From assembly GCF_032062105.1 (NCBI RefSeq), contig NW_026931071.1, positions 248,001 to 312,000 of the forward strand: a DNA stretch of 64,000 nt, in the 5' to 3' direction. The position numbers were made by a program, and so were the translations under genes. Shown one piece after another: positions 22,201 to 27,988 of the stretch. The first letter of the stretch is position 1. Every line of letters begins with the position of its first letter. Source of the stretch: Saccostrea cucullata. Its lineage: Eukaryota. A model generated the notes under the pieces. It was not told where the DNA came from, did not search any database, and worked only from the letters and a program-made list of their open reading frames with translations.

Positions 22201-25200
22201 AAGCAAAGTTTAATAAGCCTATCAGAGACTGTAGTTCTTTAAGGGTAATTTTCTTCCTATGCTTTACTTCCTGCAACTTATTTCGTATCTTGACAAGTTT
22301 TGTTTCAGGCAACCGACATTCCAAAACGTGGGAATCTACTTCAATGCCATAAATTGTTAAAATGGTTGTTGGGAAATGGGTTTTTTCTTTTTTAATTGGA
22401 ATACCCGCCTCATTGCATATTGACAGAAACTGTTGCAAATCTAGTAAGCATTTGTTGGAATCTTTTGGACCTATGAAGAAAAAATCATCAAGCATGTGAG
22501 ACATGCCTGCAGCGTCAAATTTTGTGCACATTGCCCATTGTAGACCTTTACTAAGGGATTCGAATATCTGACAAGAGCTGCTAGCTCCCATGGGCAGACA
22601 TTTATCATAATAATAACAACCTTGCCATGAAAAACCAAGAAGTTTGTAATCTTTGGGGTGTATAGGTACGATCCGGAATGCATCCTGAATATCTGTTTTT
22701 GCCATGAGAGAATCCTTACCAAATTGTCTTAACAGGGCTGTGACATTGTCAATTGAATCATACTGAACAGTGGCACACTCTTGGGGGATTTGACTGTTAA
22801 CAGAATTATGTTTTGGAAATGACAAATCGTGTATTACCCTAAATTTCCCTGGTTCAGATTTTGGTACCACTCCCAGGGGTGATGAAACAAAAAATTCAAA
22901 TGGTGGGGATTTAAAGGGACCAGCAATTCTACCTTTCTGTATGCCTTGATCTATAAAATCATCTATGACAGATGGAAAATCGGTTGTACTTTTATGATTC
23001 CTTGAAATTGTTGGAGTTGGAAGACCTATACATCCTAGACTAAATCCCTGTCTAAAACCATCTATCAAAAATTTAAGTTTCTGTGGTTCATAACCCTCTG
23101 AGACTCTATGCAGATTTTTTGGTTTGATGGGTGTTGGGAGCTCTTGAGAAGCTTGATTTTTGAGAATCTGGGCATTTGGATTTGGGGTGGTTTGATTTGC
23201 ACTGCATACAAATGTGTTTATAGGGGCAAGGGTTTCGACTGCATCGTACACCTCTGTTAAATTGGAAACAGAATTTCGTACGAAAGGGATGATTCTGTTG
23301 AGGCTTTGGACCTTGAAATTTTATAGTTGCAGCTTTGAGTCGCAATTCCTGAATGGGGTTTTGCCATGGAACGTTAACTGATTCTCTGAGTTTTCTGAAC
23401 TGCTCATCATATTGTCTAAATGCATGGTCACCGTGCAAGGACTGCACTTCACGGATCATATGGCAGTATTTGAGAAGGTTAGGGGCCTCATCCGGAAATT
23501 TCTCAATAAAGATGGCTGAAAAAATGAGGAAAGCATCAGTCCACTGGCCCAGAGTGATGGGGACTTTGGTTTTTTGACCTTGATGTAAGTTAATGACCCC
23601 AGTAGAAATAGTTACTGAAAGAGGTTCATCTTTTGTGCTAAGTAGTGATTTTAAATCAATATACTCATTGTTCCAAATTTTTTGTTTCAACTTAACAGAC
23701 ACTGAAGCACCTAATGGGATACCATCTTTTACCTCTATAACCTGATTGGATGACCTTGCTGGCTCACCTAAAAACAATTGATCGAGAATTGTTCCAATTC
23801 CAGCTGAAGATGCACTGCCTCCTTGGCCGGTCAGAGATACCTGAGGCTGAGTTGTTGATGTTGTAGCTATTGACTGACTCTGCTGGGATACCATTGATGA
23901 TGTCACCGTGGATGGCTTGTTCACAGACTGTTGTTTTATTACGGCAGCTGCCAACTTGTCATAGTCTATGGAGGGGGTAGCGTTCGACTGTACCGTATTC
24001 ACATTTGCTTCGGCATTTTCAACATTTGTCTCAGCCACCGCAGTAACATCAGCAGTACTTCCCACATTTCGCTTTTTACGAGTTTTCGACGAATTCCCCG
24101 ATGTACCATCTAATTTCCGCTTAGGAGGCATGGTGGTGACCTGAGAAAATTTATGTAATGAAGTAAAATCTGTAAATATCATAAATATGTTTGCAATATA
24201 CACAAGTTATGCATACGAAGTCTGAACAATGCAGCATTATTGTATGCATTAAGTATAATAATGACAACACCTAATGCAGTCAATTGACAGTCAAAATACA
24301 AGACCTGATATTTTGTACAGGTATGATACTTGCATGTCTTGAAAGAAATGACATAAATTAATTGACTACGGTTTTGGTGATTACAATTTCAATGGACAAA
24401 TTGCCCCGAACTTTATATGCAAACAGAGAAGTATGATATTAACCTGCACTTCCCGGAGCCGTACTGCATGATATTCATCTTAAAAGAATGTAAAGTATGA
24501 CAGTATGCATATGCAGCAGCATGAATAATATGGAAATGCATAAAGTTATGAACTTGCATAGAATATGATAAAATGAACTTGCTCTATTTATATAATGTGT
24601 TAGGACCCACATAGAATTTAGAGCAAAGTAGTTAAGGCAAGTGCCCTGATCTGTGAGTGCATTGTTGCTAATGTAAAATGCGCATGGTCTCTCATAGAAT
24701 TTAGATCAAATAATGATAAAATGATATATATCACTTGTGCGATGCTCATAATGACATATGCGTATGGTCCCGCATAGAATTAAGAGCAAATTATAATAAA
24801 ATGAACATACTTATACATAAAATGTTCATGATAAATTATGCGTATGGTCCCGCATAGAAATAAGAGCAACTTATGACAAATGAACATGAACTGTTCACAA
24901 TGTAAAATGCGTATGGTCCCGCATTAAATAGTTAGCTCAAATTATGGCTAAACACAGGATTTGTAACTGCACTGTTCATAGAGTAAAATGCGTATGGTCC
25001 CGCACAGAATTAAAAACAAAATATGACAAGTGCAACCACCTGTTCTATGCCATTCATAATATAAAATGTGTATGGTCCCACATTATATCACTTGTGCGAT
25101 GCTCATAATGACATATGCGTATGGTCCCGCATAGAATTAAGAGCAAATTATAATAAAATGAACATACTTATACATGAAATGTTCATGATAAATTATGCGT

Positions 25201-27988: not shown

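Follow-up and report, generated by a model that had tools for sequence, protein, structure and literature searches.

How does a retrotransposon whose gag stands behind another gene bring gag and the genes after it to translation, and which of its RNAs keeps an array of small hairpins placed between the two? The question is raised by an element on the minus strand of the window, a 64,000-nt stretch of Saccostrea cucullata DNA (contig NW_026931071.1, positions 248,001 to 312,000). An earlier note had proposed a single intron that removes both an SGNH hydrolase ORF and the array, such that unspliced RNA would be translated into the hydrolase and spliced RNA into Gag. Our analysis points to a broader arrangement. 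We consider it likely that this Ngaro element expresses its genes by alternative splicing of one transcript, with the array left only on the unspliced genomic RNA.

In the proposed scheme, splicing from donor D1 (26508) to an acceptor at 24141 would bring gag to the front, and splicing from donor D2 (25800) to the same acceptor would give a hydrolase mRNA that lacks the array and stops just past the junction. A third donor, D3 (23767), would be joined to 21637, fusing Gag residues 1-121 to the recombinase and supplying its start codon. Weak donors, often of the GC type, may leave some of the RNA unspliced. The hairpins would most likely serve as repeated protein-binding sites that mark the genomic RNA; Gag-mediated selection for reverse transcription is our leading guess at their purpose, and a tentative one.

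Layout of the element

The element is 7987 nt long, runs from 26829 to 18843 on the minus strand and has the gene order SGNH hydrolase, hairpin array, gag, reverse transcriptase and RNase H (RT/RH), tyrosine recombinase (YR).

26606..26829, minus strand: split direct repeat A1 (5' end), 224 nt, one difference from A2
25791..26408, minus strand: SGNH/GDSL hydrolase ORF, 205 aa; Pfam PF00657, E 2e-5; S19, N79, D165, H168
24592..25693, minus strand: hairpin array, 16 units, 5-bp stem and GGACCATA-type loop; inside introns 1 and 2
23106..24131, minus strand: gag-like ORF, 341 aa; basic N-terminus, helical core, two Cys/His clusters; gag by position only
21565..23320, minus strand: RT and RNase H; frame broken near 22010-22041 in the window copy
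20660..21658, minus strand: YR frame; SAM-like domain at aa 40-105, upstream of the first ATG (21340, aa 107)
19507..19886, minus strand: repeat B1, 380 nt, identical to B2
19284..19507, minus strand: repeat A2
18843..19222, minus strand: repeat B2 (3' end)

Judged by its split repeats, its gene order and the lack of a methyltransferase, the element fits an Ngaro-type YR retrotransposon as defined for Ngaro-like elements in PMC9210276 and PMC8547959. The near-identical repeats follow the order A1 ... B1 A2 B2. Gag, RT/RH and YR overlap on a single strand, gag being named by its position. No methyltransferase match was found past RH, whose frame ends at 21565 after 158 aa, as in Ngaro-like rather than PAT-like elements. 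With a single difference in 224 bases between A1 and A2, and none in 380 between B1 and B2, the insertion is young. A1 likely holds the promoter, with a CCAATCA 180 nt before D1. Gag and the RT frame, which is +1 to it, overlap in the window (23106-23320) and in 5 of 6 relatives (116-302 nt); in the window the first in-frame ATG of RT lies about 205 codons in.

The predicted hydrolase of the window has the catalytic Ser, Gly, Asn and Asp-x-x-His of SGNH enzymes and is 99% identical to a Saccostrea cucullata model. In an alignment of 32 sequences, S19, N79 and H168 are invariant and D165 nearly so. A hydrolase profile search of metagenome contigs yielded 47 loci; 20 of them have gag downstream in the same orientation, followed in many cases by RT/RH and YR. 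The spacer between hydrolase and gag measures 520-1650 nt across the window and these 20 loci, the window's being 1650 nt. Relatives of the hydrolase or gag were not found in viral contigs. Just upstream of the hydrolase, an out-of-frame ATG in strong context at 26415 precedes that of the hydrolase by 7 nt; the overlapping ORF of 46 aa that it opens could damp hydrolase translation. A small palindrome (CCGGTT-N3-ACCGG type) at 26420-26436, also just before the hydrolase ATG, recurs in the loci L001 and L004.

Elsewhere in the window, an LTR retrotransposon at 28459-33721 has identical direct repeats and a 1369-aa ORF with integrase ahead of RT/RNase H, an order that we take to recall Gmr1-like gypsy elements. 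A 507-aa single-exon ORF at 37889-39412 matches Otopetrin, and a reverse transcriptase ORF of 788 aa at 13047-15413 is probably part of a non-LTR element. At 10338-11400, 36596-37449 and 61559-63577 there are tandem arrays, with repeat periods of about 21 and 52 nt.

A probable intron ahead of gag

26503..26511, minus strand: donor D1, ACG/GTGAGT (slash, exon-intron boundary); first intron base 26508
24141..26508, minus strand: intron 1, 2368 nt, GT-AG; takes out hydrolase and array; predicted gag mRNA
24141..24150, minus strand: acceptor ATTTTCTCAG/, 9 nt before the gag ATG; common to D1 and D2

Both splice sites are where the earlier note had placed them. On the minus strand the donor reads GAGAACG/GTGAGT with 26508 as the first intron base; A1 ends at 26606, 98 nt before it, close to the 100 nt or so that had been given. 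The acceptor reads ATTTTCTCAG/GTCACCACCATGCCT, with the final intron base at 24141 and the gag ATG at 24131. The GT..AG ends and the donor consensus of 24141-26508 are those of a U2 intron, and sites of the form ...GTRAG[TA] occur at three places only on the element's minus strand (26608, 26508, 21024). The start context of gag, described as a strong Kozak sequence, has the favourable A at -3 and a C at +4, and is good rather than optimal. Counted from the start of A1, 74 ATGs precede the gag ATG, so splicing would be needed for gag to become the first long ORF.

Four sequencing runs were aligned to 19508-26829 at 86% likeness, with no paired DNA run among them. In one of these, X10, which is not labelled as RNA or DNA, a contig joint of depth 5.5, with a short side of 27 letters, skips 2368 nt. 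Its ends read CT..AC on the plus strand, and one cut register gives GTGAGT..TCTCAG, exactly 24141-26508. The junction of 26509 with 24140 is thus present in X10 and was found in none of X1, X2 and X11; the D2 joint described below is likewise absent from these three, X11 having only 150 aligned reads. X1, an RNA run, contains unspliced pieces that span D1 and the acceptor. In X10 the stretch just past the acceptor has a depth of 20.7, compared with 7.3 for the hydrolase and 2.4-4.7 for the array, a profile suggestive of RNA.

Conservation of D1 was assessed in the window and in the 34 loci, out of 47, whose hydrolase start could be read; together they were grouped into 18 families. In 13 of the 18 (9 of 14 at looser grouping) the motif G[TC]RAGT occurs in the 150 nt ahead of the hydrolase ATG, against 48 of 515 control windows (9%), 0 of 18 antisense and a shuffle mean of 2. 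It is absent in L001, L002, L003, L023 and L027, 5 of the 18. Because the GC form of the motif was added post hoc and the families share ancestry, the nominal p-value makes the evidence look stronger than it is. In 10 of the 13 donor-positive families the site is AG/GCRAGT, mostly AG/GCAAGT, which matches the donor consensus in full except at +2; this is the expectation for GC donors (PMC2490688, PMC3167603). D1 is retained across families whose flanking 150 nt are about 45% alike, and a CCAAT box stands 117-120 nt before it in 7 of 8 distant families.

Support for a conserved acceptor is weaker. An AG lies 0-21 nt upstream of the gag ATG in all 11 starts checked. A composite acceptor test was passed by 6 of 11 gag starts against 25 of 152 spacer ATGs (p 0.007), a modest result, since the criteria were set once the data had been inspected; the window did not pass the branch-site part, and 5 of the 11 acceptors are AAG. 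The proposal that this intron yields a gag mRNA stands on the exact joint in one unlabelled run of four and on a donor kept in 13 of 18 families, set against three runs without the joint and the weaker acceptor. On balance we judge intron 1 to be very probably real.

A probable second donor at the end of the hydrolase

25795..25803, minus strand: donor D2, CAG/GCCAGT; first intron base 25800, 10 nt before the hydrolase ORF end
24141..25800, minus strand: intron 2, 1660 nt, GC-AG; drops the array only; X10 joint depth 9.1; protein model P0095 implies the same join

A second joint in X10 skips 1660 nt at a depth of 9.1, with a short side below 30 letters. It has a 10-nt microhomology, and 1 of the eleven possible registers gives GCCAGT..TCTCAG (25800 to 24141). 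The contig ends of X10 at 24141, 26507, 26536, 25800 and 25829 are the assembly-graph branch points that the two joins predict. The earlier note had tied the hydrolase to unspliced RNA. That tie needs revising: the D2 joint (GC..AG) retains the hydrolase and loses the array alone, so the hydrolase could also be made from a spliced RNA. The predicted D2-spliced product is 212 aa long, with a stop 31 nt past the junction. A stop so near a junction would escape junction-dependent decay.

The sites at 25800 and 24141 share a 10-nt direct repeat, at which a reverse-transcriptase template switch or a deletion in the genome could have produced the same join. The microhomology, the structured sequence between the repeats and the weak donor, with C at +2 and +3, are in keeping with such an origin, and such artefacts have been described (PMC2923612, PMC8240250). 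Yet one register falls on GC..AG, and relatives carry better donors at the corresponding place: L004 has AAG/GTCAGT at the D2 site, and strong GT donors lie near the hydrolase stop in L002 (24 nt) and L003 (3 nt). Among 15 relatives checked, 3 have a D2-like GT donor, 3 have weak GC sites and 9 have none, the negative rows for L032 and L034 being unreliable owing to misplaced stop coordinates.

The hydrolase C-termini also argue against an artefact. Among 66 matches, 38 have a complete C-terminus, of which 14 end in RPV or RPL, 7 in GQ, 6 in Arg-stop and 11 otherwise; the RPV/L and GQ ends, 21 of the 38, correspond to two reading frames of the donor sequence. In addition, the Magallana gigas model P0095 continues past the end of the hydrolase into the beginning of gag, read off frame and at the same spacing, and 34 of 40 codons are compatible with this (shuffle maximum 18). 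An artefact thus appears possible but rather doubtful, and we favour D2 as a genuine splice with reasonable confidence.

These data bear on the simpler reading with two RNAs only, in which unspliced RNA encodes the hydrolase and is packaged through the array. The D1 joint, the unspliced X1 pieces across D1 and the acceptor, and the position of the array within intron 1 all agree with it. However, the depth of the D2 joint exceeds that of the D1 joint (9.1 vs 5.5), YR would be left without a start, and several families have no array. We regard this reading as improbable and retain alternative splicing from several donors.

A predicted Gag-recombinase fusion

21637..23767, minus strand: intron 3, 2131 nt, TAG/GTGAGC ... 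TTTCAATTTCAG/GAA; phase 1 at both ends; predicted Gag(1-121)-YR, 446 aa

The YR frame opens at 21658, and its own first ATG (aa 107) lies behind the SAM-like domain. Splicing from D3 (23767) to the acceptor at 21637 (TTTCAATTTCAG/) likely makes a Gag(1-121)-YR fusion, to go by the sequence: the joined frame is open over 446 aa. This third splice would supply the YR start codon. D3 sits in a nearly invariant F-x-G-E motif of gag.

Protein models contain the same fusion. Among 120 YR matches listed of 332, 18 are at least 380 aa long, and 13 of these match the profile of the N-terminal part of Gag, most switching at F-x-G-E. Gag-YR models come from Crassostrea virginica, Saccostrea cucullata, S. 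echinata, Ostrea edulis and Mizuhopecten yessoensis; the NCBI models with these joins are predictions whose read support was not seen. The Logan protein P0149 is also a Gag-YR, and the unspliced form would not fit on its longest contig (2433 nt); P0189 and P0118 have the same join. Near the YR opening, the most pyrimidine-rich YAG is in phase 1 in 5 of 5 families including the window, with one tie. If the fusion is made as predicted, many bivalve models named 'xerD homolog' would be spliced transposon products.

The D3 joint was found in none of the four runs (X1, X2, X10, X11). An X10 contig joins 23804 to 19900 at a depth of 20.7, with ends that are not of splice type, and there is nearly no depth over RT and YR in this run. 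The source of X10 is probably, in the main, an internally deleted, non-autonomous copy that keeps the hydrolase, the array and both upstream splices.

A Gag-RT protein would require D3 to be joined to a phase-1 acceptor at 23254. This fourth splice found no support: 6 relatives have no consistent acceptor, and 0 of 150 RT representatives match the Gag N-part profile.

The sites might instead be cryptic, used by the host on decaying copies and without a part in the life cycle of the element. That X10 reads come mainly from a deleted copy would suit this view, as would the models P0108 and P0109, in which the 3' acceptor region is used, but in a non-productive frame. Against it, D1 is kept where the surrounding sequence is about 45% alike between families, D3 gives the same in-frame fusion across bivalve genera, and YR would otherwise have no usable start. 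We consider cryptic splicing very unlikely.

The hairpin array

The 16 units of the array comprise 11 distinct ones and 5 copied by a 358-nt tandem duplication, with a loop of 8 nt. The folding of the array RNA has a z of -4.6, and changes on both sides of the stem are seen at 3 of 5 pairs. Covariation is 0.305 against 0.17 in shuffles, with 5 of 500 as high, a value inflated by related units. Family-specific hairpin arrays with compensatory changes occupy the same spacer in L001, L003, L006, L007 and L016. In the stems, G-U pairs outnumber A-C pairs by 15 to 4; the sense strand therefore appears to be favoured for the hairpins. The hairpin excess is significant in 3 of 11 spacers (window, L001, L006). 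It is absent from the L011, L015, L017, L023 and L035 spacers, and four families (L011, L015, L017, L035) have no array in theirs. The array is recurrent, not universal.

The close relatives L006, L012 and L018 differ in the hairpin copy number of the spacer, so the array grows and shrinks within a family. In X1, a diverged copy skips 1151 nt (24627-25779), nearly the whole array, with ends that are not of splice type.

The array lies in introns 1 and 2, and an RNA that retains it while lacking intron 3 is conceivable. The retroviral parallel drawn in the earlier note, with psi in an intron, is not general: according to the portion of PMC5035971 consulted, psi is on spliced as well as unspliced RNA in RSV and HIV-2.

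What the array does can be put in graded terms. Selection of genomic RNA through a reading of the hairpins by Gag may be its function, a tentative guess. A rival account, which taken as a whole we rate somewhat higher, accepts the splices as real and gives the array a role other than packaging: export or retention of unspliced RNA, as for the Cer1 protein CERV, damping or control of splicing, or a role on single-stranded cDNA. In its favour, genomic RNA that contains introns has to be exported by some route (PMC10309623), the cDNA of DIRS-1 is single-stranded (PMC7192593), units range from none to 16, and the Gag structure model (pLDDT 67, best Z 4.9) has no clear match to a capsid fold; a capsid fold was found neither by sequence nor by structure comparison. 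Two conserved Cys/His clusters in Gag could nevertheless bind hairpins, and family-specific loops would suit a partner encoded by the element. An array with no selected role, or with some other one, is in our view about as probable as selection by Gag.

Comparison with known elements

The Xenopus elements DIRS-53_XT and DIRS-54_XT (PMC9210276, in part) share with the window element the A1-ORFs-B1-A2-B2 layout, gag, RT/RH, YR, the lack of a methyltransferase and an extra SGNH ORF of putative function. In these elements SGNH follows YR, whereas in the window and the 20 related loci it precedes gag; splicing and a hairpin array go unmentioned in the part of that account consulted.

Plant Ty1/copia elements such as EVD likewise make a subgenomic Gag mRNA by conserved alternative splicing beside full-length RNA. 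The copia intron is found downstream of gag and its splicing is coupled to early termination (PMC5580714), while introns 1 and 2 of the window element would remove sequence before gag, and the latter has an additional predicted splice for a Gag-recombinase fusion. In retroviruses, too, unspliced RNA is the genome and cis signals can be confined to it; Gag there comes from unspliced RNA, as opposed to the predicted spliced RNA of the window element (PMC5035971, same portion). Cer1 with its CERV protein also combines spliced mRNA with an intron-containing genomic RNA that must leave the nucleus (PMC10309623, same excerpt). Cer1 is a Ty3/gypsy element, and no CERV-like gene was identified in the window element.

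The non-LTR elements CR1, RTEX and ZfL2 have a catalytically intact SGNH ORF in a 5' position, upstream of pol. Their esterase takes a gag-like place, unlike the extra gene ahead of gag in the window (PMC5408684, in excerpt). In the extract of PMC4495291 used here, the DIRS1 gag sequence was inferred to have probably carried a splice acceptor.

In the literature searched we found no 5' hydrolase, splicing or Gag-YR fusion in Ngaro or DIRS elements, and these joins do not appear in the excerpts of PMC9210276, PMC6681497, PMC7192593, PMC3783388, PMC4157794, PMC8547959, PMC12440569, PMC5941688, PMC4495291 and PMC5408684; Repbase and the reviews by Goodwin and Poulter and by Poulter and Butler may note them.

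Implications

The scheme bears on three questions about DIRS and Ngaro elements: how overlapping ORFs without starts are translated, how genomic RNA is chosen and what the hydrolase does. Conserved splice sites predict a recombinase that acts as a fusion with the N-terminal part of Gag, and a single short hairpin becomes a candidate protein-binding site. More speculatively, and we think it unlikely to hold in full, a widespread animal clade of Ngaro elements may run retroviral splicing in reverse, with Gag, hydrolase and Gag-recombinase from spliced RNAs and an intronic, family-specific array as the genomic tag that Gag reads. If true, it would give tyrosine-recombinase retrotransposons a first packaging signal and a first conserved scheme of expression.
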